In this document: positions 2,741 to 17,837 of the stretch, in pieces
How the letters are laid out: every line of letters starts with the position of its first letter
How positions within the stretch are numbered: the first letter of the stretch is position 1
Source of the DNA: a virus
Direction: 5' to 3' (one strand)
Length of the DNA stretch: 64,000 nucleotides
Virus record (IMG/VR): IMGVR_UViG_3300036766_002288
Location: 64,001-128,000 of that record
Translations under genes and position numbers: made by a program
The notes under the pieces: model-generated
What the model saw: only the letters and a program-made list of their open reading frames with translations
The model's database searches: none
Told to the model about the DNA's origin: nothing

Positions 2741-2823
2741 GGTAGGTTCGGCATTGGCAAGCCAGCTTATTTCGAAAATAAGTAAACCGAAAGGTTTTGA
2801 GAATTCAACTTTCTCACCTACCG
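2741..2823 (+). tRNA. tRNA-Ser(CGA)
   Basis: GGTAGGT/ACCTACC acceptor, G73, CTTAT-TTCGAAA-ATAAG, long variable arm. Confidence 0.9.
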
Positions 2824-2852
2824 CTATACCTTAGTTGTACTGACTAAGGAAA

Positions 2853-2938
2853 GGGTGCTGTTCCACACGCTTGTCTGTAAAACAAGTGCCATTAATATGT
2901 GTGGTGGATGGCGATGGGTTCAAATCCTACGGTGCCCA
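2853..2938 (+). tRNA. Atypical D-armless tRNA-Tyr(GTA)-like RNA
   Basis: GGGTGCT/GGTGCCC acceptor (3 G.U), A73, GCTTGT-CTGTAAA-ACAAGT, TTCAAAT T-loop; only 9 nt in place of the D-arm. Confidence 0.65.
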
Positions 2939-2945
2939 CTTGAAA

Positions 2946-3030
2946 TGTAGCGTTTGGGCATTGGCAAGCCCCACTGACTGTAAATCAGCCGCCCTATGGG
3001 CATTGTAGATTCGACTCCTGCACGCTGCAC
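2946..3030 (+). tRNA. tRNA-Tyr(GTA)
   Basis: TGTAGCG/CGCTGCA acceptor, CTGA-CTGTAAA-TCAG, variable arm, TTCGACT T-loop. Confidence 0.85.
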
Positions 3031-3036
3031 TGACTT

Positions 3037-3125
3037 GGAGTAAATTGAAAGTGGCTATTCTAATCACTCCGCTAAAGTGACAGGTGGGGAAACCCGCCTT
3101 GTGAGTTCGACGCTCACTTACTCCG
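3037..3125 (+). tRNA. tRNA-Ser(GCT)
   Basis: GGAGTAA/TTACTCC, G73, TCACT-CCGCTAA-AGTGA (C at 33), long variable arm. Confidence 0.85.
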
Positions 3126-3190
3126 CTTCAATAAATTTTCCAAAAATTTATTGAACGGTTACTCTTGTATTATTATACAAGGAGTAATCT

Positions 3191-3742
3191 ATGAAAAATT
3201 TAGAAGTCGAAATTATGACATTAAGGGAAGATGGGCATTCTTACAACGCCATAGCAAAAAAACTAAATTGTTCTAAAGGCACAATTAGTTATTATTGCGG
3301 TGAAGGACAAAAACAAAAAAGTAAAACAAGGATTCAGAATAGAAGAAAAAATACTGTAATTTCGAAACGTGTTGAAAACTTTCAAATTGATAGAAAAATA
3401 AGAGACAAATCTGAAGATTTTCAACGGGAAAGAATAATTGTTAAGAGTAAAACTCGTTTAGGCAAACGGTCTTTGACATTTACTTGGAGAGATGTAATTG
3501 ATAAATTCGGATGGGAAACAATATGTTATCTAACTGGAAGGGCTATAAATTTAAGAGAGCCGAAAACTTATCAGTTTGACCATATACATCCTTACGGCAA
3601 AGGAGGAAGTTCAACTTTAGATAATTTAGGTATTCTTATTAAAGAAGTAAATCAAGCTAAGGCAGACATGACCGTTGAAGAATTTTTAAATCTATGTAAA
3701 GACGTTTTGGAATATAATGGCTATGAAGTAAAACGTTTGTAA
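3191..3742 (+). CDS. HNH homing endonuclease with N-terminal HTH
   Basis: HTH LREDGHSYNAIAKKLNCSKGTISYY; CYLTG...FDHIHP..KGG....NL......VNQAK. Confidence 0.85.
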   Translation: MKNLEVEIMTLREDGHSYNAIAKKLNCSKGTISYYCGEGQKQKSKTRIQNRRKNTVISKRVENFQIDRKIRDKSEDFQRERIIVKSKTRLGKRSLTFTWRDVIDKFGWETICYLTGRAINLREPKTYQFDHIHPYGKGGSSTLDNLGILIKEVNQAKADMTVEEFLNLCKDVLEYNGYEVKRL

Positions 3743-3760
3743 ATGGAAGCTTCCGCTTAT

Positions 3761-3834
3761 GGCACAGTAGGCAATTAGCAGACCACTTTCGCTTAAAACG
3801 AGAGATGCTGTCAGTGCAAATCTGACCTGTGCTA
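3761..3834 (+). tRNA. tRNA with Leu(TAA) anticodon, short variable loop
   Basis: GGCACAG/CTGTGCT, A73, CTTTCG-CTTAAAA-CGAGAG, T-loop TGCAAAT. Confidence 0.85.
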
Positions 3835-3838
3835 CTTT

Positions 3839-3912
3839 GGCGACGTAGGCAATTAGCAGACCACTTAGACTCAGACTCTGAGATGCTGTCAGTGCAAGTC
3901 TGACCGTCGCTA
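3839..3912 (+). tRNA. tRNA with Leu(CAG) anticodon, short variable loop
   Basis: GGCGACG/CGTCGCT, CTTAGA-CTCAGAC-TCTGAG, T-loop TGCAAGT. Confidence 0.85.
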
Positions 3913-3918
3913 CTTTTT

Positions 3919-3992
3919 GGCAACGTAGGCAATTAGCAGACCACTTTCTTTCAAACGGAGAGATGCTATGGGTGCGAGTCCCATCGTTGCTA
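3919..3992 (+). tRNA. tRNA with Leu(CAA) anticodon, short variable loop
   Basis: GGCAACG/CGTTGCT, CTTTCT-TTCAAAC-GGAGAG, T-loop TGCGAGT. Confidence 0.85.
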
Positions 3993-4175
3993 CTATGATA
4001 CCTAGACGTTTCAGAATACTATCTTCGTCCTCAATTATGACAGAATTAGGGATCAAAGACACCTATGGTGTTTTCTTTCCTGACTTTGGCACATTCATTA
4101 TAATGTCTGAAGAAAGAGGAATAGATGAGTTTGATGGTTGTCCCGAAGATGTTGAGTGGTTGGACTAGATAGTAT

Positions 4176-4922
4176 ATGGCTATTTTCCTAGAACATGTGA
4201 ATAAGCGAGATTTAAATAAAAGATTATTTGAAACTTTTGGCAAGTACAAAGTCTTCATTGTAGACGGCCAAGCCATTAGAAAACTTAATCTAACTGACCA
4301 TGAGTTTACTGATTCCGCCATCCATGCTACCTTTCCTAAATTAATACCAGATAAGGAAATATGGATAGATGATGTAATCAAACCGAATGAAAGATTTATA
4401 TTGATAAGTAATTTACTATCATTATACAAGTATTTAAGTAAAGAATCCTTGGACAAAGCTTATGATAAAGCATTGAAAAAAGAAAAGTCGATGAGGGAAA
4501 AGGTAGACAACGTAAGATTACATCCAGAAAAAACGAATGAAAGAGCGTCACCGAAGGTTTACAAGAGTCTATATGGTAAGATTGGAGATGTTAAGATTTG
4601 GTTGGTAGATGGGGAATACGTAAGAGATAAGTATAAGACAGATTATACCGAAGGTGGACACGATTACGTATACAAATGGATTCCACACAATGAAATTTGG
4701 ATTGAGTCCACAATGCATAAGTCTGAAATGCCTTTGATCGTTTTACATGAATTTGTGGAAAGAACATTGATGAAGACCAAGGGAATAGAGTATGATAAGG
4801 CACATACGATTGCATCGAAAGTGGAATTTGCAAAAGAAGATAAGTTTGATAGGAACGATGTTTTATCCATGACTGAGGATAAGGCATTGAAGATGGACGA
4901 GACGCGAGTGGTTAGCAACTGA
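4176..4922 (+). CDS. Hypothetical protein with internal domain duplication and HExxE motif
   Basis: (V/W)xVDGxxxR...IPxxEIWI occurs twice; LHEFVERTLM..H in the second copy. Confidence 0.75.
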   Translation: MAIFLEHVNKRDLNKRLFETFGKYKVFIVDGQAIRKLNLTDHEFTDSAIHATFPKLIPDKEIWIDDVIKPNERFILISNLLSLYKYLSKESLDKAYDKALKKEKSMREKVDNVRLHPEKTNERASPKVYKSLYGKIGDVKIWLVDGEYVRDKYKTDYTEGGHDYVYKWIPHNEIWIESTMHKSEMPLIVLHEFVERTLMKTKGIEYDKAHTIASKVEFAKEDKFDRNDVLSMTEDKALKMDETRVVSN

Positions 4923-4977
4923 TTTTGAAAATCAGGGGACCGAAAGGTTCTGTGGGTTCGAATCCCATCTCGATCCG
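4895..4977 (+). tRNA. tRNA-Ser(TGA), bulged acceptor stem; overlaps 3' end of upstream CDS
   Basis: GGACGAG/CTCG[A]TCC, G73, CTGAT-TTTGAAA-ATCAG, variable arm, TTCGAAT. Confidence 0.8.
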
Positions 4978-4980
4978 CTT

Positions 4981-5067
4981 GGAGCGTTGGCAGAGTGGCT
5001 GAATGCGCTAGTCTTGAAAACTAGAGTCCCCTCACGGGGACCGAGGGTTCAAATCCTTCACGCTCCG
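4981..5067 (+). tRNA. tRNA-Ser(TGA)
   Basis: Canonical: GGAGCGT/ACGCTCC, CTAGT-CTTGAAA-ACTAG, long variable arm. Confidence 0.95.
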
Positions 5068-5115
5068 TACAATAAAATTATCATAATTTTTATTGAACCC
5101 TAACTATGTTAGGGC

Positions 5116-5640
5116 ATGAAAGAACAAATATTAAAACTCCGTGCAGAAGGTTTGTCTTATAGGGAAATCTGTGCCCGATTAGACTGCTCAAAAAGTGTAG
5201 TGTCCTACCATTGTGGGGATGGACAAAAAGTAAAAACTAGGATTAGGGCACAAAAAAGACGAGGCAGGGCGGTTGTAGATAATAAAATTTATAGATTCAA
5301 AAATAAAAAAGCCTTGAGAGACAAAACGAACGATTTCCAACGAAGAGAAGGGGGCAAGCTTAAAATTAGAAAAATTATTTTTAATTATGAAGATGTAATG
5401 CAAAAATTTGGAGAAACCCCTATATGCTATTTAACGGGAAGAGAAATAAATTTAGAAGACACAAAAAACTATCACTTTGACCATATTATACCAGCAACGC
5501 GCGGCGGCTCAAACGATATAGATAATTTAGGACTAGCGTGTAAAGAAGCAAATAAAGCTAAGTCAGATATGACAATAAATGAGTTTATACAAATTTGTAA
5601 AGAAGTATTAGAGCATAATGGTTACAGGGTAATTAAGTAA
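5116..5640 (+). CDS. HNH homing endonuclease with HTH (paralog of 3191-3742)
   Basis: LRAEGLSYREICARLDCSKSVVSYH; CYLTG..FDHIIP..RGGSN...NL...CKEANKAK. Confidence 0.85.
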   Translation: MKEQILKLRAEGLSYREICARLDCSKSVVSYHCGDGQKVKTRIRAQKRRGRAVVDNKIYRFKNKKALRDKTNDFQRREGGKLKIRKIIFNYEDVMQKFGETPICYLTGREINLEDTKNYHFDHIIPATRGGSNDIDNLGLACKEANKAKSDMTINEFIQICKEVLEHNGYRVIK

Positions 5641-5642
5641 TT

Positions 5643-5729
5643 GGACGGTTTGGACATTGGCAAGTCCCCTTAGTTGGAAACTAAGTACACCCGAAAGGGT
5701 GTGTAGAGTTCGAATCTCTAACCGCTCCG
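5643..5729 (+). tRNA. tRNA-Ser(GGA), bulged acceptor stem
   Basis: GGACGGT/ACCG[C]TCC, G73, CTTAG-TTGGAAA-CTAAG, long variable arm. Confidence 0.85.
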
Positions 5730-5734
5730 CTTAT

Positions 5735-5811
5735 GGCGCAGTGATGCAACCTTCGGCAGACATTCTTGACTTAGAATCAAGATTATATGGGTTCGAATCC
5801 CATCTGCGCTA
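5735..5811 (+). tRNA. tRNA with Leu(TAG) anticodon, short variable loop
   Basis: GGCGCAG/CTGCGCT, A73, CTTGA-CTTAGAA-TCAAG, variable loop ATTAT. Confidence 0.85.
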
Positions 5812-5827
5812 GTATAATAGTGAAAAT

Positions 5828-5910
5828 GCGGTAGTGGCGGAACGGTATACGCGCTTGCTTGAGGTGCAAGTCCCTTAAGTGGGATGTGGGTTCGACTCCC
5901 ACCTACCGCA
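5828..5910 (+). tRNA. tRNA-Leu(GAG), class II
   Basis: GCGGTAG/CTACCGC, CTTGC-TTGAGGT-GCAAG, long variable arm. Confidence 0.95.
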
Positions 5911-5912
5911 CT

Positions 5913-6155
5913 ATGAAAACTACATATTATCGACAATGCAAATTGCAGAAAAAGAACACCTTCCAAACCAGCTATATTCCAGAAGAATTTGCTGTTATGA
6001 ATAAGATTATTAAACTACGTGACAACAACGTATGGGATGATGGCTGGAAGGTCATCGCAGTTAGTTCTTCACGGCACGCAGATGATAACCTGCCTGACTC
6101 TCATTCTTCAATTAAGGCACATCGTAGGGCAACTGGTGATTCACAAAGGAAATAA
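5913..6155 (+). CDS. Hypothetical protein
   Basis: ATG immediately after tRNA-Leu(GAG); the ORF-track N-terminal extension is tRNA sequence. Confidence 0.6.
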   Translation: MKTTYYRQCKLQKKNTFQTSYIPEEFAVMNKIIKLRDNNVWDDGWKVIAVSSSRHADDNLPDSHSSIKAHRRATGDSQRK

Positions 6156-6156
6156 T

Positions 6157-6441
6157 ATGTGTTTCATATATGATGAATACGCCGAACTTTACAAAGAAAA
6201 AGACGTAAAGGCAAAAAAAGAACACAAATGTTCTGAATGCGCCAGAACTATCTTTAAAAATGAGACGTATCAATATATTTTCACAATATTTCAAGGTGAT
6301 GCGACCACTACAAAGATTTGTTCAGATTGCAAGGATAAAAGACAAAAAATACATGATATAGAGATTAGTCATGGATGTAGCGAAAATGAATCTTGGCCTC
6401 CTTTAGGCGAACTAAGGGAATATTTACAACATTATGAATGA
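6157..6441 (+). CDS. Small Zn-finger protein
   Basis: KxRKxHxCxEC...CxDC pattern. Confidence 0.65.
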   Translation: MCFIYDEYAELYKEKDVKAKKEHKCSECARTIFKNETYQYIFTIFQGDATTTKICSDCKDKRQKIHDIEISHGCSENESWPPLGELREYLQHYE

Positions 6442-6462
6442 TATATACTGTAAAGGAGTATC

Positions 6463-6660
6463 ATGGACAAGCGTGAATACCGACAACTAAAAAGGACTTT
6501 AAAAAAAGAAGGCAACAAAAAGGCACGAAAAAAACTTAAAAATGACTTAAGAGACAATCCTGAAGAAACCCATTGGTCAGAGATAGATTACGGCAACTGT
6601 AAGACCGAAGATATGAAAAAATACAGCAGAGGACATGAAGATGAATATAGGTCTATTTGA
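6463..6660 (+). CDS. Small basic hypothetical protein
   Basis: GGAG SD, in operon order. Confidence 0.55.
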   Translation: MDKREYRQLKRTLKKEGNKKARKKLKNDLRDNPEETHWSEIDYGNCKTEDMKKYSRGHEDEYRSI

Positions 6661-7210
6661 TATGGACGGTAGCTTAGCTGATTATGAAGGTCAACTAAGG
6701 AAGGATTTGACCAAATGTCTTGGTGAAGAAGATTTGAAAAAGTTCGATGAGTTAGGCATGTGGAAAGCTGACGACCAAGAACCATTTAAATCACTCATTA
6801 GACTGATTAAGAATCAACCTTGTTGGTGGAAGAATCTCCCAGTAATGCAGAAAGGACTGGATATTTTCCACCTTGCTGTGCAGATTGGTTTTAAGAACCA
6901 TATTTTAACTAAGGGTCCAAAACATTATCCAAGGGCGTGGAAAGAAAAAGTTGAATGGTCTCAGCATTTATTTGGCAAGGATATTGACATTCATATAACA
7001 TCGGATAAAGGGTTAGTTTACGGCAGATTTTTATATGACGATTATCCTGATTATATGTTAAAATGGCTTGGGAGGCGTCCAAGGGGTTTGGGTATTATGC
7101 CAGTGAACAATTTCAATAAGGATTTTAACCATCCACAGGTAATTAAATGGGATGGAATAAACTATGATGAAGTGAAGGAAGCGTTGATAAAATGTTTCAA
7201 TAGGGGCTAA
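6641..7210 (+). CDS. 5'(3')-deoxyribonucleotidase (NT5C/HAD family)
   Basis: LFDMDGSLADY, WWxNLP, ILTKGP, EKVEW, DK..V.G..LYDD. Confidence 0.85.
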   Translation: MNIGLFDMDGSLADYEGQLRKDLTKCLGEEDLKKFDELGMWKADDQEPFKSLIRLIKNQPCWWKNLPVMQKGLDIFHLAVQIGFKNHILTKGPKHYPRAWKEKVEWSQHLFGKDIDIHITSDKGLVYGRFLYDDYPDYMLKWLGRRPRGLGIMPVNNFNKDFNHPQVIKWDGINYDEVKEALIKCFNRG

Positions 7211-7231
7211 GTGGCAAAACGGTATACGCAG
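7205..7231 (+). pseudogene. 5' fragment of a class II tRNA-Leu
   Basis: GGCTAAGTGGCAAAACGGTATACGCAG aligns with the 5' 27 nt of the tRNA at 7752, then diverges into A-rich spacer. Confidence 0.65.
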
Positions 7232-7266
7232 AAATAAAAATTAAAACGTGTTTACTATATTAGTTG

Positions 7267-7749
7267 ATGAGAAAAAGAAAATGGAATGACGAGCAATTAA
7301 TAGAAGCTGTTAAAACAAGCAAATCGGTGATGGAAGTATTGAAAAAAATTGGCTTAGGTTTAAGTGGTGGCTCCCATGCTTTGGTAAAAATGAGGATTAA
7401 ACATCTTAAAATTGATAATTCTCATTTTACAGGAAAAGGATGGTGCAGAGGGGAAAAGCACGAGGAATTCATTAAGCGAGTACTTCAGTATCCTTTAGAA
7501 CAAGTTTTAGTCAGAGATTCAACTTATCAGAACACACATGCCTTGAAAAAAAGACTTATAAAAGAAGGATTATTAATAAACGAATGTTGTAATTGTAAAC
7601 TAACCACATGGCTCAATGAGCCTATCAGTTTACAATTACATCATAAAGATGGAGATAGATGTAATAATTTGATTGGAAATCTATCAATACTATGTCCAAA
7701 TTGTCATAGTCAAACATCTACATTTGCAGGTAAGAGTAAAAGAAAATAA
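7267..7749 (+). CDS. HNH homing endonuclease (second subfamily)
   Basis: WNDEQLIEAV..S.S..EVLKK.GL; CCNC..W....LQLHHKDGD..NN...NL..LCPNCHSQT. Confidence 0.9.
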   Translation: MRKRKWNDEQLIEAVKTSKSVMEVLKKIGLGLSGGSHALVKMRIKHLKIDNSHFTGKGWCRGEKHEEFIKRVLQYPLEQVLVRDSTYQNTHALKKRLIKEGLLINECCNCKLTTWLNEPISLQLHHKDGDRCNNLIGNLSILCPNCHSQTSTFAGKSKRK

Positions 7750-7751
7750 AC

Positions 7752-7832
7752 GGCCAAGTGGCGGAATGGTATACGCGGCACACTCAAAATGTGTTGTCCT
7801 TGGGCATGTGGGTTCGACTCCCACCTTGGCTA
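7752..7832 (+). tRNA. tRNA-Leu(CAA), class II
   Basis: GGCCAAG/CTTGGCT, GCACA-CTCAAAA-TGTGT. Confidence 0.95.
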
Positions 7833-7993
7833 CTTATGAATACAAGTCTCAAATATCATGAAAAGATTTGGAAAGAATCCAGTTTTTTAACAAAGATTAA
7901 ATTTATTTTTTTTGGTTCGATCATATTCATGATCTTAATCGTTGGGTATTGTTGGGACAATGGAATTAAGAAGACATTGGATTTATTCAAAGA

Positions 7994-8419
7994 ATGAGCG
8001 TATTTCTATATAATTTTGAGCTTTTAACATGGATGCAATGGAAGATAAACTATCTTCCAGGCATTAGGGTTCAATGTGATTTCAGCAAGATTAATGCTAC
8101 ACCAGCGGTTCATATTGCAACTACGACAGATCAAATACGTTATCCTTGGTATGAAAATGGTGATTGGCGGGATGGGACTCCGTTGTGGTTCAAAGTTGGT
8201 GGTGGCCAGGTATTATGGCGGGGGCCTGCTGTAAGATATAAAGGTGTTTATTTAATTTTAGATGGGTGTCATAGGCTTCTTGACTTACAGCCAAGTATTG
8301 TTATAATGGATTATATTGATTTGAAGCAGGAAGAAATTTGTTATTTTAGTGACCTTTTAGGGATGTGGAACAATGACAATCCAAGAAGCGGCTGGTTTTT
8401 TGGTAAAACACCTGAATGA
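7994..8419 (+). CDS. Hypothetical protein, ParB/Srx-like motif
   Basis: YLILDGCHRL resembles the ParB-N DGHHR motif. Confidence 0.5.
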   Translation: MSVFLYNFELLTWMQWKINYLPGIRVQCDFSKINATPAVHIATTTDQIRYPWYENGDWRDGTPLWFKVGGGQVLWRGPAVRYKGVYLILDGCHRLLDLQPSIVIMDYIDLKQEEICYFSDLLGMWNNDNPRSGWFFGKTPE

Positions 8420-8561
8420 TCCAGAAACATTTATTGTTTCTGTTCGGGATAATGAAATCTTTGTAGACGTTAATTGGATTTATCGTAAGTATGAAATAGA
8501 TCAATTAGGCGGCAGTTGGAACGGGTTTCCAGTGAAAACAGGTCGCATAAGTTGTTGGTAA
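8373..8561 (+). CDS. Small hypothetical protein
   Basis: ORF in operon order. Confidence 0.5.
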   Translation: MTIQEAAGFLVKHLNDPETFIVSVRDNEIFVDVNWIYRKYEIDQLGGSWNGFPVKTGRISCW

Positions 8562-8779
8562 GCAGCAATCGTGGCGGGTAGTGAGCATAGCAGGGGCGAA
8601 AACGCAAATATTCCGCGAACGAAGGACTGGGCGAGTGAGTGGTGAGCGATCTTTCTTTATTCATGGATGAATAAGTGGCTTATTAGAGGCGAAGTTCATC
8701 TAACTATGACAACCAGAAAGAGCGGCGGATATTCTAATCGGCGGTATCAAAAGGCGTGACACCTGCATAGTCGATTGAT

Positions 8780-8861
8780 GGCCAAGTGGTGGAACGGTAT
8801 ACACAGCAGACTTAAAATCTGCCGCCCGTTGGGCTTGCGGGTTCAACTCCCGCCTTGGCCA
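8780..8861 (+). tRNA. tRNA-Leu(TAA), class II
   Basis: GGCCAAG/CTTGGCC, GCAGA-CTTAAAA-TCTGC. Confidence 0.95.
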
Positions 8862-9003
8862 CTATATGTCTTTCATAATAAATTTAACCTTTCTGCCAGT
8901 ATCAATATTTGCATACTTACTATTCCAAAAATGGTATAAACCAATTACAATTCCAGGCATACTATATCATTACATTGAAACTGGTAAATGGGGAAACTAG
9001 CCA

Positions 9004-9567
9004 ATGGAAAGAACTGAACTAACTGATGGCGGATACATATTGTATCAACCAGATTTCTATAATACAAAAATCGCAGATAATCTCTTCAACTTGTTACTAG
9101 ATGTTCCCTGGAAACAAGAGACATTTTCTTGGGGCAAATTTCCTAGACTCACATCTTATTACGCCGATGAAGGTGTAAAATATGAATATTCTGGAGTCAC
9201 CCACAAAGCTTTGGTATGGCCAGGAATTCTCTCAGCGGTAAAAGATAAAACTCAACAAGTTGTTGGTGAGAAATTTAACAGTCTATTGTTAAATTTCTAC
9301 AGGGATGGTGCGGATTCTATTGGCTGGCATTCAGATGATGAGAAAGAATTAGGAATAAATCCAATCATTGCATCTATTTCATTGGGTGCTGAAAGAACAT
9401 TCAATGTTAGGCACAAAAGAACTAAGGAAAAGTGGTCTATAGTTTTAAAGAATGGAAGTTTAATAGTTATGGGTGGTACAATGCAACATCATTGGCAGCA
9501 TTGTGTGCCAAAGACAACCAAGCCAGTTTTTGCAAGAATAAACCTTACTTTTAGGAACATTTTATGA
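9004..9567 (+). CDS. alkB: AlkB-family 2OG-Fe(II) dioxygenase (ALKBH2/3-like)
   Basis: PRLTSYY, NSLLLNFYRDGADSIGWHSDDE (HxD), HWQHCVPK, RINLTFR. Confidence 0.92.
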   Translation: MERTELTDGGYILYQPDFYNTKIADNLFNLLLDVPWKQETFSWGKFPRLTSYYADEGVKYEYSGVTHKALVWPGILSAVKDKTQQVVGEKFNSLLLNFYRDGADSIGWHSDDEKELGINPIIASISLGAERTFNVRHKRTKEKWSIVLKNGSLIVMGGTMQHHWQHCVPKTTKPVFARINLTFRNIL

Positions 9568-9962
9568 GTTCATACAAAGAAGCATGTCAAGTTACAAAAG
9601 AGACTGATAAGTTATTTACAGCATACGATTTTCATCCAAGTGATTTGGTTGTAATTGGTCATGAAGAAGGCACACAGTTAGTGTATAAAAGTGCCTTCTT
9701 AAAAGAATGGAAAGATTACATCTTCGTTTTCACAGAGCATCATGGGACTTTAGTTTACCATAAATACGATTTATCTTATTATAATCAATACACTACCAAG
9801 GAAATAGAAAAGCTAAAATTCACATTTCATAAGGATATATGTCAAGACTGCAAAATTGAATTCAAAGTTGAAGATTTAAGGTATGGCTATCATCCAGAAC
9901 GATATGAGGAAATCAGCATTCTTTGTAATGGTTGCTATGAAAAGGCTTGTGACTTACCCTGA
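9564..9962 (+). CDS. Hypothetical protein with C-terminal CxxC..CxxC
   Basis: ORF with Zn-ribbon-like cysteines. Confidence 0.6.
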   Translation: MSSYKEACQVTKETDKLFTAYDFHPSDLVVIGHEEGTQLVYKSAFLKEWKDYIFVFTEHHGTLVYHKYDLSYYNQYTTKEIEKLKFTFHKDICQDCKIEFKVEDLRYGYHPERYEEISILCNGCYEKACDLP

Positions 9963-12900
9963 TACCTTTTTAATATAAATGCCATTCGTTGCTAGCTCAA
10001 AAGTTAAATACTCAATATATTCTTTAGCTGATTTTAGATTCCAACCCAATGCTTCTCTAGCTAGTTTTATTGCTTGAATCTTATCTCCCTGTTCTATTTT
10101 GCTCTCCATGTCCATTATTGTTTTTTTGTCTAAAAACGGCTTGCCAGGCATATCATGGTAGTGCTGAACCATTATTTCATGTGCTTTTTCTTGAGATAAA
10201 GGAGAAATGGCATAAATTGTTTTAGCATCAAAATATTTTTGTATTGCTAATTCTTTTAAATAGGTTTTTTTGATATCAAACAATTGATTTGGACTATAAT
10301 TAGCACCTAATGCGGCGTTGACCTTAGTTAAAATATCTTCAATTGGATAACTAGGGTTGTAATATTTAGTAGAAATAATTGCCCTCGCTACTTTCAAATC
10401 CATTGGGAAAAGGAATGCCTTCAATGGATTAAAGCTGTTTTTCAAAGAATCAATAATTTTAGCACCTGTATCTATGGGAGCAGGAGCAGTTGCTAGTTCC
10501 ATATCATCTGCTTCGATAGCATAACTACCGCCACTAGGAAACTTAACACTATAACCATGTTCAAAATCTGATTGTGGAATTTTGTAAACAATTGTTCCAA
10601 CCATACCTTTGTGATAACCATTTATGATCTTAACTGGATCGCCATTTTTGAATTCTTTTTTAGGTTTTGAAGACAACTCAATATTCACCACCTTAATAGG
10701 TGCCTCGCCACCATCATCAAACTTAATATGCACCATGTTATCTTTGTAAGCGCCTGTATAAGTTTTAGTTATATGACCAGTCAGACCTGCATACATTCCA
10801 TCTTTGACTTTTACAAAGTCTCCGACTTTAAAATCCTTTTTAGACCCCGCCGCCACTGGTGCTACTAATTGCAGATTGCCTGCATGTACCAAATATTCAT
10901 ATCCAGCACCGCCAGACTTTATTTTATAAAGATTATCACCTACAATTTTCTCTTTAACGACGCCAGTTATTCCATTATGTTCACCGCCAGTAACTTTAAC
11001 GGTTGCCCCAATTTCAAACGTTTTTGACTGACCCTTCTTGCCTGTTATTTCGAACTGATTTGGTGCTAAAATTTGATCTTGTTTGCCACCGAAGGCAATG
11101 TCTAAAGCAATAGTATAATTTGTTCCGTGGTTCACCTTAACGGTGCCTGTAAAACCTGCAAAACTACCATCTATTACCTTAACAATGTCCCCCACTTCTG
11201 GGGTGGGCGATTTATCTAATTCGATATCATTTTTATAGAAAAGATACGGGGAATCGGATGACCCTAATGTAACCATATAATTCCCATTTTCAGTCTTGTG
11301 CTTAAATTTACCTTTTTTGCCTGTGTGCAAACCATTTTTAACTTTAATAGGATCGCCTGCCTTAAAATCTTCTTTTTCCTTAACAGAATCATCCTTCTTC
11401 AAATCCCCCTGAGAGAAATACAAATTTTGCTTTTTACTATCAAGGGGACTTTCTACGGCGACAATCCACACACCTTCAGTTGAAGTTGAGGTTACAATCT
11501 CACCTTTCTTGCCCTTGTAATCACCATTAGTTATGATTACAGGGTCGCCTACTTTATATGATGGTCTTGTTTTTTCATCCTTTTGCAAATCGTAGTTTGA
11601 ATAGGGAATTAGGTTTACAAGACCAAGATCGACTTGATAGGGATATGGGTCTTCGGCGGCTTTTATATTTTTGATAAAACCTTTCATGCCTTTATGACTT
11701 CCATATTTGATAGTAACATGGTCGCCTACTTTAAGGCCCAGAAGCGACTTGCCACCGCTAGCGGAATCGTCTTTCTTGAAGTAATCTGAGGAATACCATT
11801 GTTCATCGGCTTCCCCACCATGCGGCATCGTTACAAGAACACTCCATGAATGCCCATTATAACTTTTGAGAACACCTTTTGAGCCGTTATAAGTGCCATG
11901 AGTGATGATTACATGGTCCCCTACCTTATTCCCTTTTTCGTCTGGGAAGCTGCTGGCTTTCTTTTCAACAACTTCAAATCTATGTCTCTTAAAAGCCTTT
12001 GTAGGCTTATCTGCGAACTCGACGTTGAAATAAGGAAAATCGTATTTGTAAATCTTATCTATGACGGTTCCAGTTTGGCCAACATATCCACTAGAACCAC
12101 CTATAATCTTAACCTTGTCACCAATATCTACATCAGAAGGATGTGGGGGCTGATTAATTGGGGTTCCTGTGTATGTCGGCTGTGGAACAGGTTTACCCTT
12201 ATTAACCTTGGCCCAATATTCTTGATTAACTTGTCCCATAGAGTATGGGGCTGGTCCATAATTGCCAGTTACAGGGCTTGATACTGATTGATTTATAATA
12301 TGTTGACTAGCATATTGTTCTGGGGTAATATCTTTAGGCTTACTTTCCCAATAAGTATCATTAGGATAGTTTTTTTCATGTTCAGCTTTCTTTTTCTCAT
12401 ATTGAGATTGCTGCATCTGATTATATATCTCTGCCTTTTTCTTTAGAATTTCAGGCCAATCTTTCTCAAAGTCCAAAAAAGTTTTGCCTGTCTTGAGCTT
12501 AATACCAATTTTGGCCACTTCCCGCATTGAAGGACTAATATGCTCAAACATTTCGTGGGGAGAAACTAGATCACGTTTATGGTCAAGTGATTTCTGAATC
12601 CAATCATACTTATTATCTTTCCTATAACTTTTTAATTTAGTGAATACACTACCAGTATTATGTTGTAAGTCGTAAACATGGTCAATGTAGGCGATTATCT
12701 TATTTGGCGTTTCGGCATCATTTAGGTGTGTCCAACCATCAGCAATACCTCCCCAGGCTTTGCCACCATATGAACTACCCCATTTTGCATTATAAAATAG
12801 CCAACTGGCTAGCTTTGCCCATTCTTCATCTGTTCCACCTGCATGTTTCAGAGCTTTGTATGAAGTGGTATAACCATCATCACTGTTTTTAGCTGTAGTC

Positions 12901-13454
12901 GGTATATGGATACGATCCATTATTTCTGCTGTTTCTGGATTTTGTAAATTTCTTAAAGCGAGTGTGTAATTCCTTAGTAAACTTGCTTCTTTTGGACCGA
13001 GTTCCTTTTTCACTCTTTCAATTAAAAGTTTAGGCTTATTTCTTTCACTATCATATAAGTGTCTTAATTCGGCGGAAATAGAAAACATAACTGCTTCCAA
13101 TAGTTCCTTTTTAAGGGCTGGCAGTAGTTTATTGCCTACTTCATATAGAGCATGATAGAATTTGTCCTCTACGGTCATGGACATATCACCATAATGTCTC
13201 GTATCTGGTGGAAGTCCTTTTTCTTCTCTTTCTTTATTCTGAAGTGCATTAGCTTTTTCTGTATCTTCTCCACCAAAATCCATTGGTTTTAGATACATGT
13301 GAATACCAGGCGGAAGAAGATATTCGAGCATGTAAAAGTCGTACATTTGCTGTTGTCTATCTTCTGGGACATGGTATGTCCATGAACCAAATACACCTTC
13401 TAGTATTGGATTATAATCTTTTTTATTTAACCAATTAGCGAACTTGTCTAGCAT
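9954..13454 (-). CDS. Giant protein: unknown N-terminal domain + 9 KOW repeats + C-terminal L7/L12-CTD-like motif
   Basis: Nine (F/K)xxGDxVxIxxGxxxGxxG repeats; C-terminal GDKIQAIKLAREALGWNLKSAKEYIE; likely start MLDKFANWL with TAAATA 5 nt upstream. Confidence 0.8.
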   Translation of the reverse strand: MLDKFANWLNKKDYNPILEGVFGSWTYHVPEDRQQQMYDFYMLEYLLPPGIHMYLKPMDFGGEDTEKANALQNKEREEKGLPPDTRHYGDMSMTVEDKFYHALYEVGNKLLPALKKELLEAVMFSISAELRHLYDSERNKPKLLIERVKKELGPKEASLLRNYTLALRNLQNPETAEIMDRIHIPTTAKNSDDGYTTSYKALKHAGGTDEEWAKLASWLFYNAKWGSSYGGKAWGGIADGWTHLNDAETPNKIIAYIDHVYDLQHNTGSVFTKLKSYRKDNKYDWIQKSLDHKRDLVSPHEMFEHISPSMREVAKIGIKLKTGKTFLDFEKDWPEILKKKAEIYNQMQQSQYEKKKAEHEKNYPNDTYWESKPKDITPEQYASQHIINQSVSSPVTGNYGPAPYSMGQVNQEYWAKVNKGKPVPQPTYTGTPINQPPHPSDVDIGDKVKIIGGSSGYVGQTGTVIDKIYKYDFPYFNVEFADKPTKAFKRHRFEVVEKKASSFPDEKGNKVGDHVIITHGTYNGSKGVLKSYNGHSWSVLVTMPHGGEADEQWYSSDYFKKDDSASGGKSLLGLKVGDHVTIKYGSHKGMKGFIKNIKAAEDPYPYQVDLGLVNLIPYSNYDLQKDEKTRPSYKVGDPVIITNGDYKGKKGEIVTSTSTEGVWIVAVESPLDSKKQNLYFSQGDLKKDDSVKEKEDFKAGDPIKVKNGLHTGKKGKFKHKTENGNYMVTLGSSDSPYLFYKNDIELDKSPTPEVGDIVKVIDGSFAGFTGTVKVNHGTNYTIALDIAFGGKQDQILAPNQFEITGKKGQSKTFEIGATVKVTGGEHNGITGVVKEKIVGDNLYKIKSGGAGYEYLVHAGNLQLVAPVAAGSKKDFKVGDFVKVKDGMYAGLTGHITKTYTGAYKDNMVHIKFDDGGEAPIKVVNIELSSKPKKEFKNGDPVKIINGYHKGMVGTIVYKIPQSDFEHGYSVKFPSGGSYAIEADDMELATAPAPIDTGAKIIDSLKNSFNPLKAFLFPMDLKVARAIISTKYYNPSYPIEDILTKVNAALGANYSPNQLFDIKKTYLKELAIQKYFDAKTIYAISPLSQEKAHEIMVQHYHDMPGKPFLDKKTIMDMESKIEQGDKIQAIKLAREALGWNLKSAKEYIEYLTFELATNGIYIKKVSG

Positions 13455-13483
13455 TGTAATATTTATGTTCTTTTCTCTCAATT

Positions 13484-14347
13484 TTGTTGGTAAATACTAA
13501 AATGAGTGTGTCACTTGATGAGTTAGTTAATTGTGATGGGCAATTAGTCTATGCTATTGATGAAGAAGAGAACGTCTACATAGGTATTTTGTATTATAAA
13601 CCAGAGAACGGTGAATTTTCGGTTGAAATTTGGGAAGATTCGTGCTGCGCGATGGCAATAATGACTCCAGACGACCTTATTTACTTAATTTGTAATAATC
13701 CTAGCGGAACAGTAATAACATTCTTTGACCCAGACTTGTTTGATTTAAATACGACTTGGACAGTTCCTGATGGTATTTTTTCTGTATTTGTCGAATGCTG
13801 GGGCGCGGGTGGATATGGCAATACTAATATTAGTGGTGCATTTGGAGGTGGTGGAGGTGGTGGGGGTGCTTACGCTGCTAGTATAGTGTCAGTAATGCCT
13901 GGAGATGTTTATAGTATAACGATTACAAATACTAATTGTAATCCTAACTTCGTTTCAACCATATTTGGGTCAAATTTAGTTACTGCTGCTGCGGGGAGTT
14001 GTGCTAATGCTCTTGGCATAGGTGGGGCAGGCGGGCAAGTGGCAGATAGTATAGGCACTACTAGATTTGCTGGTGGAAATGGTGGGGATGGGGACACATC
14101 TGTTGGAGGTAGTGGCGGCGGTGGTGGGGCATGTGCAGGGCCAGGTGGACCAGGAAATGCTGGGGCAATTGTCACTGGTGGTGTCGGAGATGGTGATTTA
14201 GCAGGCAGTGGCGGGGCAGGAGCGGCATTGCCTGCAACTCCTGCCGATTTTGGTGGACTTTATGGTGGAGGTGGAGGTGGTGGAGCAAGTGGTGGAGCAA
14301 TAGAAGGAGCAAATGGACCCCCAGGAATTATTCGTTTAACATATTGA
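13484..14347 (+). CDS. Glycine-rich-domain virion-type protein
   Basis: WTVPDGIFSVFVECWGAGG..GGGGGAYA..GGGGG..G..GIIRLTY module. Confidence 0.7.
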   Translation: MLVNTKMSVSLDELVNCDGQLVYAIDEEENVYIGILYYKPENGEFSVEIWEDSCCAMAIMTPDDLIYLICNNPSGTVITFFDPDLFDLNTTWTVPDGIFSVFVECWGAGGYGNTNISGAFGGGGGGGGAYAASIVSVMPGDVYSITITNTNCNPNFVSTIFGSNLVTAAAGSCANALGIGGAGGQVADSIGTTRFAGGNGGDGDTSVGGSGGGGGACAGPGGPGNAGAIVTGGVGDGDLAGSGGAGAALPATPADFGGLYGGGGGGGASGGAIEGANGPPGIIRLTY

Positions 14348-14371
14348 CATTCTTGATTTTTGTGCTATATA
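14344..14371 (+). promoter_or_regulatory. Sigma70-type promoter upstream of HNH/tRNA block
   Basis: TTGACA-N16-TATATA with TG extension. Confidence 0.55.
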
Positions 14372-14379
14372 TTAATTAG

Positions 14380-14910
14380 ATGAAATACACCAAGGAACTA
14401 CTTGAGGCCATAGTAAAAGAAAGCTTATCAGTAGCCCAAGTTATAAAGAAATTAGGACTAAAACAAGCTGGTGGTACGCATCATTACATTTCAAAAAAGC
14501 TTAAGTGCTTTGAAATTAATGTTGAGCATTTTACTGGACGCGCAAGTAACCACGGAGACATGCATAAAGGTGGCCCAGCTAAAAGAACGTGGCAAGAAAT
14601 ACTAGTTTTAAGAGAAGATGGTAAAAGACAAAGAGCATTTGTATTAAGACGTGCATTGATTGAATCTGGAAGCAATTACGAATGCAGTATATGTAATATT
14701 AAAGAATGGTTTGGCAAGACAATAATTCTAGAAGTAGACCATCTAAATGGCGATTATTGTGATGACAGAAAAGAAAATATAAGATTTATGTGCCCGAATT
14801 GTCATAGTCAATCACCTAAATATTGTGGCAGTAAGGGTTACACAACTATAACTAGCACTGCCAAATCGCAGAAAGAAAGAAGGAAGAGAGTACAGTTGGC
14901 CAAGTGGTGA
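14380..14910 (+). CDS. HNH homing endonuclease (paralog of 7267-7749); stop lies inside the next tRNA
   Basis: YTKELLEAIV..S.S..QVIKKLGL; CSIC..W....LEVDHLNGD..D....N.RF.CPNCHSQ. Confidence 0.9.
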   Translation: MKYTKELLEAIVKESLSVAQVIKKLGLKQAGGTHHYISKKLKCFEINVEHFTGRASNHGDMHKGGPAKRTWQEILVLREDGKRQRAFVLRRALIESGSNYECSICNIKEWFGKTIILEVDHLNGDYCDDRKENIRFMCPNCHSQSPKYCGSKGYTTITSTAKSQKERRKRVQLAKW

Positions 14911-15001
14911 AATGGCATACACGCAGGTCTTATTGGTTAAACAACCAGCAATAGAAGCCTGTGCCCGTAAGGGCGTGCGGGTTCAAGTCCCGCCTTGGCC
15001 A
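14898..15001 (+). tRNA. Class II tRNA-Leu (probably TAG) with 21-nt insertion in the anticodon loop
   Basis: GGCCAAG/CTTGGCC, CAGGT/GCCTG stem enclosing a 28-nt loop CTTATTGGTTAAACAACCAGCAATAGAA. Confidence 0.8.
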
Positions 15002-15005
15002 CTTT

Positions 15006-15341
15006 ATGAGTCGATACGGATTTGATTTAGATGGAACTCTTGATGTTCCTTCCATAGCACAACTCGCCAATGATTTATATGACGCAGGACACGAAATATA
15101 CATAGTCACAGGTGGGTTTGGCGATCATGGAGAATGGACAATTTCTGAGCGCGAAAAGAAATTAGCCAGACTTGGTGTTAAATACACAGAAATCATTCGT
15201 TGTTTAAAACCCTCTTTTGAAGAAATTGGTAAAGAGAAAGGTCGTATTTGCAAAGAAAGAAAAATTTCTTTGTTATTTGACGACTCAGAAACTTATATCC
15301 AGCAATCTAAAGGGGCGGTCCAATGTCTGAAAGTGATCTAA
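15006..15341 (+). CDS. HAD-superfamily small hydrolase
   Basis: GFDLDGTL, IVTGG, KG..C......LFDDS. Confidence 0.7.
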   Translation: MSRYGFDLDGTLDVPSIAQLANDLYDAGHEIYIVTGGFGDHGEWTISEREKKLARLGVKYTEIIRCLKPSFEEIGKEKGRICKERKISLLFDDSETYIQQSKGAVQCLKVI

Positions 15342-15553
15342 AACAACTTATTCTTGAAAAAGGCGGCGTAGCTGCCATTAAACATTACCGTGAAATCAAT
15401 AAATGCAATTTAAAAGAAGCAGTCCAAGCAATAGATTCACTTGGCCCATTGCCACGTATCTTTAAATCAACTACTCCATGTCCAGATTGTGGCAAATTGC
15501 TTAGAACAGATTTAGCAAAACAATGTTTTGAATGTGGAAAGGATTGGCATTAA
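15323..15553 (+). CDS. L7/L12-CTD-like motif + Zn ribbon protein
   Basis: AAIKHYREINKCNLKEAVQAID; CPDCG..LRT..AKQCFECG. Confidence 0.6.
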   Translation: MSESDLKQLILEKGGVAAIKHYREINKCNLKEAVQAIDSLGPLPRIFKSTTPCPDCGKLLRTDLAKQCFECGKDWH

Positions 15554-15874
15554 ATGGAACTTCATGGTTCAGATTTAGTTTTTGAGAATGTGAAAGTACC
15601 AATTTCAGAAGATTTGGTTATACCTATAATCAAAACTCACTGGCCTGAGTTGGTCTACGAAGCAATGATGGAAAATGGTGATCTGCACTTGTTCATGCAC
15701 CCAAATCAACACGCTGAAGAATCTTGGGACGATGAAGGTTGGTCTGAAGAAAATGACATAACTTTGATTTACATGATTTGGGATGAATCGAAGGCTGAAC
15801 TGACTTTTGTGATTGACGATGAGAAGAAAAACAAGTATATCGTAGATGACATACAGAAAGGTCTTGGGTTCTAA
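15554..15874 (+). CDS. Acidic hypothetical protein
   Basis: ORF abutting upstream stop. Confidence 0.6.
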   Translation: MELHGSDLVFENVKVPISEDLVIPIIKTHWPELVYEAMMENGDLHLFMHPNQHAEESWDDEGWSEENDITLIYMIWDESKAELTFVIDDEKKNKYIVDDIQKGLGF

Positions 15875-15877
15875 ATC

Positions 15878-16315
15878 ATGCGATGGCTCTTACTTGCTTT
15901 ACTCTGCGTAGGTTGTGCAGAACTACCTTCTGCCAAAGAAAAAGAAGAAGAATTGCAAATACGTAAAAAAAGACACGATGCTGAGTGTGAGGAATGGCGG
16001 ACGAGAATTTTTGATGTAGTTAAGGTTTCGACGGAAGAAGATAAAAAATACACTGAGTCTATGCTGCATTGGTTGAATACTAATCTAGATGATCCTGATA
16101 TTGTTCAGTGGATTAGTAAGGAATACTCCAGATGCAAAAAGTATGGTACGTCAAAAACTGAAATTCTTGTAAAGATTAGGGTAATTGATAGTCAAGGGAT
16201 CAAAAAGATTCACGAGTATTATTTCATATTCGACTTTGACAAAATCCAAAATGCCTACCCCAGATATACTCACCCAAGAAAAATTACCATTATACCACCA
16301 CCCTACTTAGGTTAA
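15878..16315 (+). CDS. Putative lipoprotein
   Basis: MRWLLLALLCVGC lipobox. Confidence 0.65.
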   Translation: MRWLLLALLCVGCAELPSAKEKEEELQIRKKRHDAECEEWRTRIFDVVKVSTEEDKKYTESMLHWLNTNLDDPDIVQWISKEYSRCKKYGTSKTEILVKIRVIDSQGIKKIHEYYFIFDFDKIQNAYPRYTHPRKITIIPPPYLG

Positions 16316-16872
16316 CATGGTTGACTACGAAGGATTTCACCTTAATCAGGCAAGTGCTTTTCTCCAGTTTATCCGCACTGGCGAGAAGTTTGGGTATAGT
16401 AAATGTTGTGTATTTCAATTTGCATCTGACTCAATATCCGATAAATTGCCGTTTAAACTACGTGGTCTCATAAAAAGAGAAGATGGGAAAATCTACGTTC
16501 CATGTGACTCCTGTACAGGGTTAAGATTATGAAAGATGCTGTAACCATCTACTATTGTGGTCAAGGTTGTATCTATCGGTGTCCAGAGTGCCATAAGGCG
16601 GATAGATTGCCCTATGACAGGCCACCTGCTACAAAAACATGTCGTTTTTGTGAAAAAGAATTTGAACTCATACAAGTAAGTTCAATGAACGATGAATTGT
16701 ATGGAGTCATTCAAGAAATTAATGCTCCTGATGCTTATTGGGAAGATTAATATGTTTTGCTGGCTATTTGGACATACAATATACGTTGAAGATATGGGCG
16801 GCACTCTTATAGAATGCTGCGAGTGTTGTAATTGGGTTGGCAGATATGTAAATTACGATATAGAGGTTAAAC

Positions 16873-17361
16873 ATGAACGAGACCCTGATAAGGAAAGAAA
16901 AACTTCCGAAGGGACTTAGCTATCCTTTACAGACACAGGATATTGTTAATGGATTACATACTGAGTCCTTGGCCATTTTTTACCGTTATGATTGTAGTAA
17001 CCCAGGAAAAATGAACAAATGGACTGTAATAGATTTATTTGACTTACATTGTTATCCTGATAAAACTAGGACTCTCGTAGGTAATAATTTTTCTATAGGT
17101 ATCACTTCAATCGAATCTAAGTTAAGGAAAAAATTTAGAGAAATACTGTGTAAGGAAGTGTTGCCACTTGCAAAGACATGGCAGGAATTGAACAACAAGG
17201 GAAAAAATTTATCTGTTCATTATCGAGTATTTCAGGATGACTATCTAGGTTATGGCGGCATATATATGGAAGAAAACCGATATGGGCCTAAAAAGAAAAT
17301 CTTATATCGGAATGATAGCTTTAACATAGATGAAGATTTAAAGGTGATTTATGAAAAATAA
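16873..17361 (+). CDS. Hypothetical protein
   Basis: 162-aa ORF with GAGG SD. Confidence 0.6.
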   Translation: MNETLIRKEKLPKGLSYPLQTQDIVNGLHTESLAIFYRYDCSNPGKMNKWTVIDLFDLHCYPDKTRTLVGNNFSIGITSIESKLRKKFREILCKEVLPLAKTWQELNNKGKNLSVHYRVFQDDYLGYGGIYMEENRYGPKKKILYRNDSFNIDEDLKVIYEK

Positions 17362-17369
17362 CAAACTCC

Positions 17370-17708
17370 GTGGGTGCGAGAAGCATAAGTTTTTCTCACA
17401 CTACGGAGGTTTCTATGAAAAGGTGGCACGAAGAGTATAATGTCTTTCATCGTCAGTGGAAGATACATCGCAAGTCTCACGTTGAGTCTAATAAGGACTC
17501 AAGTAGAAATCGTATTGGCAAAGACCCATACGAAGTCGATTGTAGTTGCGATGAGCAGGTAGGTCGTTTCAGGAAAATGGATGCTTGGGATTGTGGCAAT
17601 CCACACTGTCAGGTGTGCCATTACAACAAATATCCTAAACGGGAATTGACAAATGGTGAAGTAAAGTCTAACATCTCTTTCAAGGAACAGTTGAAGGAAA
17701 GAGATTAG
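17370..17708 (+). CDS. Cys/His-rich hypothetical protein
   Basis: CGNPHCQVCH motif; true start probably the ATG after GGAGG. Confidence 0.55.
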   Translation: MGARSISFSHTTEVSMKRWHEEYNVFHRQWKIHRKSHVESNKDSSRNRIGKDPYEVDCSCDEQVGRFRKMDAWDCGNPHCQVCHYNKYPKRELTNGEVKSNISFKEQLKERD

Positions 17709-17713
17709 TTAGT

Positions 17714-17837
17714 GGCCGAATAGTCTAACGGTATGGCGGTAGAATTACATTACGTGGCTTTGGCTGAAAATGCCGATATTATAGTTTCCACATAATCCCT
17801 AATCTACAGATGGCGGGTTCAATTCCCTCTTCGGCCA
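17714..17837 (+). tRNA. tRNA (probably Val TAC) with 52-nt structured insertion in the anticodon loop
   Basis: GGCCGAA/TTCGGCC, A73, D-arm GTCTAACGGTATGGC, GTAGA/TCTAC stem enclosing 59 nt, T-loop TTCAATT. Confidence 0.75.

Follow-up and report, generated by a model that had tools for sequence, protein, structure and literature searches.

Introduction

In textbooks and reviews, a long variable arm counts as an unvarying trait of tRNA-Leu except in animal mitochondria, and the contact between G18 and pseudouridine 55 as near-universal. Here we describe four genes for arm-less tRNA-Leu, three in tandem (type A) and one apart (type B), in a 64,000-nt stretch of viral DNA, hereafter the window, which spans bases 64001-128000 of the 187-kb IMG/VR record IMGVR_UViG_3300036766_002288 (phage record G000). 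The record has a G+C content of 38% and a CheckV completeness of about 37%, which for a sequence of 187 kb indicates a fragment of a huge phage. Animal mitochondrial tRNA-Leu shares with these genes a class I body (one without the long arm), Leu anticodons and A73, but belongs to an unrelated lineage with its own mitochondrial leucyl-tRNA synthetase (LeuRS) and a relaxed elbow; the likeness is one of form only.

In Streptomyces coelicolor, a type I tRNA-Leu(CAA) has been described (Fan et al. 2019, NAR, PMC6614811) that resembles the window's tRNAs in its Leu anticodon, its 5-nt variable loop and the presence of class II tRNA-Leu in the same cell. It is leucylated by the single LeuRS of the organism, U8:A14 being important for charging, and the charging of S. 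coelicolor type II tRNA-Leu is unharmed by removal of the arm (PMC6614811). Compared by description and not by sequence, the Streptomyces tRNA differs in being encoded by a chromosomal housekeeping gene, as one isoacceptor with normal G18G19/U55C56, whereas the window holds four phage isoacceptors, three of them A18/G55, and its type A combines a 6-bp anticodon stem with a 2-bp D-stem.

Among cultured phages, the type-A scaffold itself is present, as GTAGGCAAT-GGAAGACCA, in gene 84 of Curtobacterium phage Yappy (PQ868972) and gene 122 of Microbacterium phage Big4 (ON637770), which are annotated as tRNA-Leu and share with the window's genes the 6-bp anticodon stem, the ATGCT variable loop and A73. 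Salmonella phage Felix O1 (AF320576) carries three arm-less Leu tRNAs of 75-76 nt, counted without CCA, and keeps the long arms of its Ser and Tyr tRNAs; it differs in using another arm-less scaffold, with a regular D-stem and an encoded CCA. The genes of all three phages have a normal GG/UUC elbow, unlike the A18/G55 genes of the window. A blastn search of the whole 2.6-kb region against cultured phages matched class II Ser and Leu tRNAs only, and Yappy and Big4 were found once a more typical member of the family served as the query.

Long tRNA arrays (L-arrays) of the type described in 2021 (PMC8421152) and by Tran et al. 2016 (PMC4758250) are known to spread horizontally, to be linked with homing endonucleases and to occur in Planctomycetes. 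The planctomycete arrays hold genes nearly identical to type A (GGCTCGGTAGGCAAYNGGCAGACCAC...), are associated with homing-endonuclease genes, as the window's array is, and include G55 variants. They differ in being chromosomal and in covering nearly all amino acids, whereas the window's array is phage-borne, interrupted by open reading frames (ORFs) and made up of Ser, Leu and Tyr genes plus one Val-like gene. Arm-less Leu tRNAs go unmentioned in both array papers (PMC8421152, PMC4758250), and a literature search on such tRNAs in Planctomycetes, arrays and phages returned nothing relevant, which is weak evidence since most subscription journals lay outside its coverage.

The arm-less tRNA-Leu scaffold is not unique, being found in huge-phage contigs, cultured actinophages and bacterial arrays, and the window's genes are further members of a kind that is already in the databases and little discussed in print. 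The new part of the finding is the compensated A18/G55 elbow. We take the four genes to encode functional elongator tRNA-Leu of the arm-less type (type I), probably charged by the LeuRS of the host, a reading drawn from sequence comparison to which we give a probability of about 0.7.

Results and discussion

Four arm-less tRNA-Leu genes

ARAGORN calls ten tRNA genes in the window, every one of them Ser or Leu. Three of the Leu calls stand in tandem and measure 75 nt each, at 3761-3835 (taa), 3839-3913 (cag) and 3919-3993 (caa); the type-A genes for tRNA-Leu(UAA), tRNA-Leu(CAG) and tRNA-Leu(CAA) occupy 3761-3834, 3839-3912 and 3919-3992 on the plus strand, with Infernal/Rfam tRNA scores of 37.0, 35.4 and 34.9 bits, respectively. 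The type-B gene for tRNA-Leu(UAG), at 5735-5811 on the plus strand, was overlooked by ARAGORN and recovered by Infernal/Rfam with 51.5 bits. All four genes exceed the RF00005 gathering score of 29 bits. Annotation tools thus miss or under-score arm-less Leu genes, ARAGORN having missed one of these four.

All four have G1.U72 and A73; their anticodon stem is 6 bp long, and their variable loop, AUGCU or AUUAU, measures 5 nt. The long variable arm of bacterial class II tRNA-Leu exceeds 10 nt and forms a stem-loop; here the loops are 5 nt. The UAA, CAG and CAA genes have a common D-arm, GTAGGCAATTAGCAGACCAC, with AG at the usual position of the D-loop GG, and T-loops UGCAAAU, UGCAAGU and UGCGAGU, so that each of them carries A18/G55. 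An earlier note, made from the letters of this DNA alone, had proposed four Leu-anticodon tRNAs with 5-nt variable loops, G1.U72 and A73, the first three with a common D-arm, AG for the D-loop GG and TGC T-loops. The sequence bears out each of these points, and the Rfam scores and, for three of the four genes, ARAGORN agree as to the tRNAs.

The layout of type A, as seen in the UAA gene, comprises a 7-bp acceptor stem, the D-arm GGCA/AUUAGCA/GACC and the variable loop AUGCU, and in its D-stem two G-C pairs precede a C.A and an A.G opposition. The type-A D-loop matches that of the core class II tRNA-Leu of Bremerella (GGAATTGGCAGACGC): apart from G18>A, the loop AAUUAGCAGAC equals the Bremerella core Leu D-loop AAUUGGCAGAC, and A73 and Leu anticodons are present as well. 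The D-loop typical of bacterial class II tRNA-Leu is characterized by A14, A15, G18G19 and A20a. Type B has a 12-nt D-loop with normal GG, the variable loop AUUAU and a normal T-loop, UUCGAAU; its homologues in the related phage records G003 and G004 (L132 8803-8878 and L133 2847-2922) show compensatory changes in their stems. The body of the CAG gene is that of the UAG tRNA in the related phage records L001/L002, with a different anticodon loop.

The 6-bp anticodon stem hinted at membership among Sec, Pyl or allo-tRNAs, which have 8/4, 9/3 or 9/4 acceptor/T-stem geometry or, for Pyl, a 3-nt variable loop and one base between the acceptor and D stems. This candidate was rejected, as the genes have 7/5 geometry, U8 and A9 after the acceptor and a 5-nt variable loop. 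A T precedes G1 in all four genes, and an 8-bp acceptor formed through U(-1) and A73 was considered; U at -1 is frequent upstream of bacterial tRNAs.

Conservation of the type-A scaffold

We measured covariation in an alignment of 68 distinct type-A genes (the UAA gene with 67 homologues, the CAG and CAA genes among them), using 500 shuffles and slid-partner controls. Genes of Yappy, Big4, G002 and the Bremerella arrays align with those of the window. In this alignment 90.4% of the cells pair and 14 pairs change on both sides; none of the 500 shuffles reaches the observed pairing values, and the signal collapses when the partners are slid. Both-side changes are seen in six of the seven acceptor pairs, four of six in the anticodon stem and four of five in the T stem, and the support includes the sixth anticodon-stem pair. 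U33, A35 and A37 show little or no variation. The anticodons of the 125 type-A genes that we collected are all for Leu (tag 61, cag 34, caa 14, taa 11, gag 5), and A73 is present in 107 of the 109 that were parsed. The 1:72 pair is G.U in about half of the family; most of the others have G-C and a few have A-U, indicating that G1.U72 is common in the family and not defining. With compensatory changes in 68 homologues, the proposal of a second, arm-less Leu-decoding set beside the class II copies holds up.

These results bear on the possibility that the genes are not used in translation, being instead decaying pseudogenes, decoys or substrates of another tRNA-dependent process. The weak D-stem, the loss of the universal U55 and the modest Rfam scores could be so explained, the array also holds broken-looking or insert-bearing tRNAs (4895-4976, 14898-15001, 17714-17837), and in some hosts transcription of long tRNA arrays is poor (PMC8421152). 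However, every stem is kept by compensatory changes across phages and bacteria (the type-A D-stem, being invariant, is uninformative for covariation), U33, A37 and the Leu anticodons are conserved, and the 18:55 change is compensated and not random. Array tRNAs of Anabaena, moreover, have been reported to be functional and inducible (PMC8421152). We regard disuse of the genes as improbable.

The A18/G55 elbow

U55 and G18 are reported to be conserved in tRNAs, and pseudouridine 55 to be the tRNA modification whose conservation is the most universal (PMC7912444). Among the orthologues of the type-A genes, a D-loop AG always occurs with a T-loop UGC, and a D-loop GG always with UUC. When the CAA gene of G000 is compared with its orthologue in G001 (L001/L002), the D and T stems are identical and the arms differ only at positions 18, 55 and 60, where the orthologue has G18, U55 and C60. 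All three type-A genes are A18/G55 in the G000 lineage and only one is in G001; the UAA gene appears to have acquired the T-arm of its neighbour. G19-C56 is invariant throughout the type-A alignment.

Counted over the distinct sequences of four families (Ala, Ile, Leu type A and class II Leu), A18/G55 occurs in 23 and G18/U55 in 160, with mixed combinations in 0; one G18/G55 exception belongs to a fifth family (L152, Leu-CAA). In the Ala tRNAs of planctomycete arrays AACAG goes with UGC, versus AACGG with UUC, and A18/G55 is also present in Ile and one class II Leu of these arrays, and probably in array Thr, Met and Gln tRNAs and in a Tyr-like gene of phage G002 (L130). A18/G55 is a true covariation and represents a compensated 18:55 contact, as the earlier note had surmised from the D- and T-loops. 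A literature search found no paper on an A18/G55 alternative, again weak evidence given that most subscription journals lay outside its coverage.

A plausible geometry has the amino group of A18 donating to O6 of G55, replacing the contacts from N1/N2 of G18 to O4 of U55. A tRNA with this elbow should still fold to the L-shape; it cannot carry pseudouridine 55 or Gm18. The covariation provides a natural substitute, open to testing, for the tertiary pair most conserved in tRNA, and could be used to probe the roles of pseudouridine 55, m5U54 and Gm18 and whether elbow-reading nucleases shape phage tRNAs.

The last question leads to a counter-defence explanation, in which arm loss and/or A18/G55 would hide the tRNAs from a nuclease or a modification-dependent factor that reads the long arm or the G18/pseudouridine-55 elbow, so that Leu decoding is kept while host tRNA-Leu is destroyed. 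Such a role would add a selective reason and does not exclude charging of the tRNAs with leucine by the host. A Burkholderia CdiA-CT toxin cleaves tRNAs within the T-loop. The near-confinement of the repertoire to Ser, Leu and Tyr in G000, G001, G003 and G004 (with Phe in G003) suggests a special need for those tRNAs, A18/G55 extends through all three type-A genes of the G000 lineage as against one in G001, and G55 recurs in several isotypes of planctomycete arrays. Cleavage of tRNAs can be compensated by tRNAs of phages or arrays, and under stress some of the array tRNAs are themselves cut (PMC8421152). On the other hand, the nuclease, its target and its cleavage site are all hypothetical, and the phage retains ordinary class II Leu copies together with a type-B arm-less tRNA whose elbow is normal. 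Arm-less Leu tRNAs occur both in chromosomal arrays and in phages whose hosts are unrelated, with Ser and Tyr arms kept, which is what LeuRS tolerance alone predicts, and the 5-10-nt variable loops of array Leu tRNAs resemble gradual erosion; arm loss restricted to Leu, with loops of this size, fits passive loss where the synthetase tolerates it. We consider counter-defence possible but rather unlikely.

A version of this idea that concerns the elbow holds that A18-G55 is a recurrent, selected structure, repeatedly evolved in phage and array tRNAs (Leu, Ala, Ile and probably Thr, Met, Gln and Tyr) to escape a host factor reading the canonical elbow or T-loop. Candidates for the factor are a nuclease that acts on the T-loop of tRNAs and a surveillance step dependent on TruB, TrmA or TrmH. 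We hold this version to be unlikely; if it were true, counter-defence would be written into the tertiary structure of tRNA.

Amino-acid identity and charging

Four lines of evidence point to leucine as the amino acid carried: the Leu set of the related phage G002, the PF00133 search, the Leu-type D-loop together with the absence of Ala and Ser elements, and the behaviour of Leu codons. G002 is a complete relative (226 kb, CheckV 100%) with 38 Rfam tRNA matches, or about 40 tRNAs. Its five Leu isoacceptors are all arm-less, and its remaining long tRNAs are Ser and a Tyr-like gene.

A six-frame search for PF00133 (LeuRS/IleRS/ValRS-type) found nothing in G000-G003, other aminoacyl-tRNA synthetase (aaRS) families not being searched. 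In G004 the only match is a 61-aa open frame inside the tRNA array, L133 9045-9206 (G004:C1:87044-87205; positions 25-79 of this class Ia aaRS catalytic domain, 23.4 bits). The earlier note had suggested that a phage LeuRS was perhaps needed. Since the domain is absent from the 187-kb record and from G001-G003, including G002 at 100% completeness, the family does not depend on a LeuRS of the phage dedicated to it, and charging would fall to a host enzyme.

The 3:70 pair is C-G in 66 of the 68 type-A sequences, and the tRNAs have neither the G3.U70 recognized by AlaRS nor the long arm recognized by SerRS. We then compared Leu codons between G000 and G001 over 180 orthologous alignments with a mean identity of 71%. 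TTA, TTG, CTT, CTC, CTA and CTG each align with L in 76-85% of cases and next with I, F, M or V. Likewise, in the release factor 1 (RF1)-like protein of the phage, Leu codons mostly stand opposite L or I of Thermus RF1. Recoding of Leu codons was ruled out by the substitution profiles and the RF1 alignment. Compared with bacterial RF1, the RF1-like frame, at 25589-26491, is short of roughly 100 residues at its start (phmmer against Thermus RF1, E = 2e-46).

The same observations disfavour mischarging, the alternative raised in the earlier note, by which the arm-less bodies would be charged by a synthetase other than LeuRS and would insert another amino acid at Leu codons. Natural mistranslating tRNAs exist in other systems, the body is atypical for tRNA-Leu, and LeuRS ignores the anticodon, so that identity and anticodon are separable in principle. 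Yet the 3:70 pair and the missing arm speak against AlaRS and SerRS, and most other synthetases read the anticodon, of which a single body here bears five, all for Leu. The Leu-type D-loop and A73 are retained, the six Leu codons substitute in a leucine-like manner, and the complete set of G002 has arm-less Leu tRNAs only. In addition, the scaffold is conserved in the arrays of many planctomycete genomes, where constant mistranslation would be costly. Mischarging is, in our judgement, highly improbable.

In the reading we favour, that of arm-less tRNA-Leu charged by the host, the genes would be supplied by a tRNA pool common to phages and mobile long tRNA arrays. The scaffold would derive from class II tRNA-Leu, retaining the Leu-type D-loop AAUUGGCAGAC, A73 and often G1.U72 and losing the variable arm, a loss that may be tolerated, since bacterial LeuRS does not read the anticodon and, at least in some species, does not read the arm either. 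The genes would probably be co-transcribed with the neighbouring Ser, Leu and Tyr tRNAs and HNH genes, and the products processed and completed by CCA addition. Once charged with leucine by the host LeuRS, the tRNAs would read all six Leu codons during infection beside the class II copies. In three of them the covarying A18-G55 replaces the universal G18-U55 contact, with G19-C56 kept. A G1-U72 pair is found in the crystal structure of E. coli LeuRS with tRNA-Leu(UAA), as referred to in PMC6614811. If this reading is correct, arm-less substrates must be acceptable to the LeuRS of many hosts, with consequences for the rules of tRNA identity and for designing orthogonal pairs. The genes add evidence that the long-arm and G18/pseudouridine-55 rules are both relaxed in the phage and mobile-array tRNA pool.

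Several points weigh against it. Expression, leucylation by a host enzyme and use on the ribosome are steps that we infer, and, with the record about 37% complete, an aaRS gene may be present in a part of the genome that the record lacks. In vitro, the type I tRNA-Leu of Streptomyces was not charged by E. coli LeuRS (PMC6614811), so that charging should not be taken for granted with an arbitrary host LeuRS. The D-stem of type A consists of two Watson-Crick pairs and invariant C.A and A.G oppositions, and the three A18/G55 genes reach no more than modest scores in Rfam (35-37 bits). Finally, the reading leaves unexplained why both arm-less and class II copies are retained.

Distribution of the scaffold

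We scanned for the type-A D-arm with exact patterns; a 14-mer scan of viral contigs gave mostly chance matches, and only longer patterns were used. The scaffold was found in eleven viral contigs and, among the matches listed, in more than 120 bacterial contigs, nearly all of these from Planctomycetota and a few from Bacteroidota. Pirellulales, Planctomycetales, Gemmatales, Isosphaerales and Kuenenia are represented among the listed planctomycete matches. The tRNA homologies point to Planctomycetota, with a few matches in Bacteroidota, as candidate hosts, but the G+C of the phage is 38%.

The bacterial type-A genes sit in long tRNA arrays of 20-35 genes with conserved order. In the planctomycete arrays most Leu isoacceptors are arm-less; they use several scaffolds related to one another, their variable loops measure 5-10 nt, and Ser and Tyr tRNAs retain long arms. 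Bremerella cremea has a full, dispersed class II Leu set (tag, caa, taa, cag, gag) alongside its array, indicating that the array tRNAs are supernumerary. A chromosomal tRNA array of this species (L266, G006:C3:1652800-1656300) also includes a class II gene for Leu(UAG) that combines G1.U72 with an A18/G55 elbow; its acceptor stem, GGCCAAG...CUUGGCU, recurs in the class II Leu genes of the window and so links the tRNA pools of phage and array.

Other genes of the window's array

The array of the window holds about 16 tRNA-like genes across 15 kb with ORFs in between, a density below that published for L-arrays, which are dense arrays of 20 or more tRNA genes. The tRNA repertoire of G000 (2741-17837), like that of G001, G003 and G004, is nearly limited to the class II amino acids Ser, Leu and Tyr, with Phe as well in G003. 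Class II tRNA-Leu genes lie on the plus strand at 5828-5910 (GAG, a canonical copy), 7752-7832 (CAA, likewise with G1.U72 and A73) and 8780-8861 (UAA), each supported by ARAGORN and Rfam. A fourth, probably UAG, is at 14898-15001 on the plus strand (Rfam 45.9 bits, and sequence) with a 21-nt insertion in its anticodon loop. The earlier note had listed canonical class II copies for UAA, CAA, UAG and GAG, which is right for three of them and, for UAG, as to presence but not as to canonical form.

Two genes resembling homing endonucleases of the HTH-HNH kind flank or interrupt the array on the plus strand, one at 3191-3742 immediately 5' of the three tandem tRNAs (Pfam HTH_38, HNH_4) and one within the array at 5116-5640 (Pfam HNH_5, HNH, HNH_4, HTH_38). 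Among the tRNA genes there are also a third HNH gene (7264-7749), an NT5C-type 5'-nucleotidase (6635-7210) and an AlkB-like 2OG-Fe(II) oxygenase (9004-9567, 122.8 bits).

Two Tyr(GUA)-type tRNA-like genes lie at 2855-2939 and 2947-3029. The latter is a weak class II tRNA (34.4 bits), and the former has a reduced D-arm, the bases of which could pair with the long variable region. A Sec-like tRNA at 4895-4976 has a Ser anticodon, UGA, together with a long arm and an acceptor stem that is extended and has a bulged A; its Rfam tRNA-Sec score of 32.6 bits is under the gathering score, and the end of the ORF at 4176-4922 overlaps its 5' part.

Insertions in the anticodon loop of otherwise normal tRNAs are seen in the window at 14898-15001 and 17714-17837 and in loci L140, L141, L154, L170, L171, L189, L210, L241 and L247. 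The 21-nt insert of the class II Leu gene at 14898-15001 can form a hairpin (CUUA[...]UAGAA), that of the Val(UAC)-like tRNA at 17714-17837 measures about 51 nt, and planctomycete array tRNAs often carry ones of about 20 nt, seen as ARAGORN calls of 90-96 nt. The inserts fall short of the size of group I introns; they could be mini-introns or inactivating insertions. The tRNA array of Anabaena is co-regulated with rtcB (PMC8421152).

A scan of the array for promoters and terminators gave results not above shuffled expectation, with no terminator found between the array tRNAs and one good promoter-like site upstream of the array, at 2478-2505. Beyond the window, at record positions 178845-179193, ARAGORN calls a phage tmRNA with the tag AENTYALAA.

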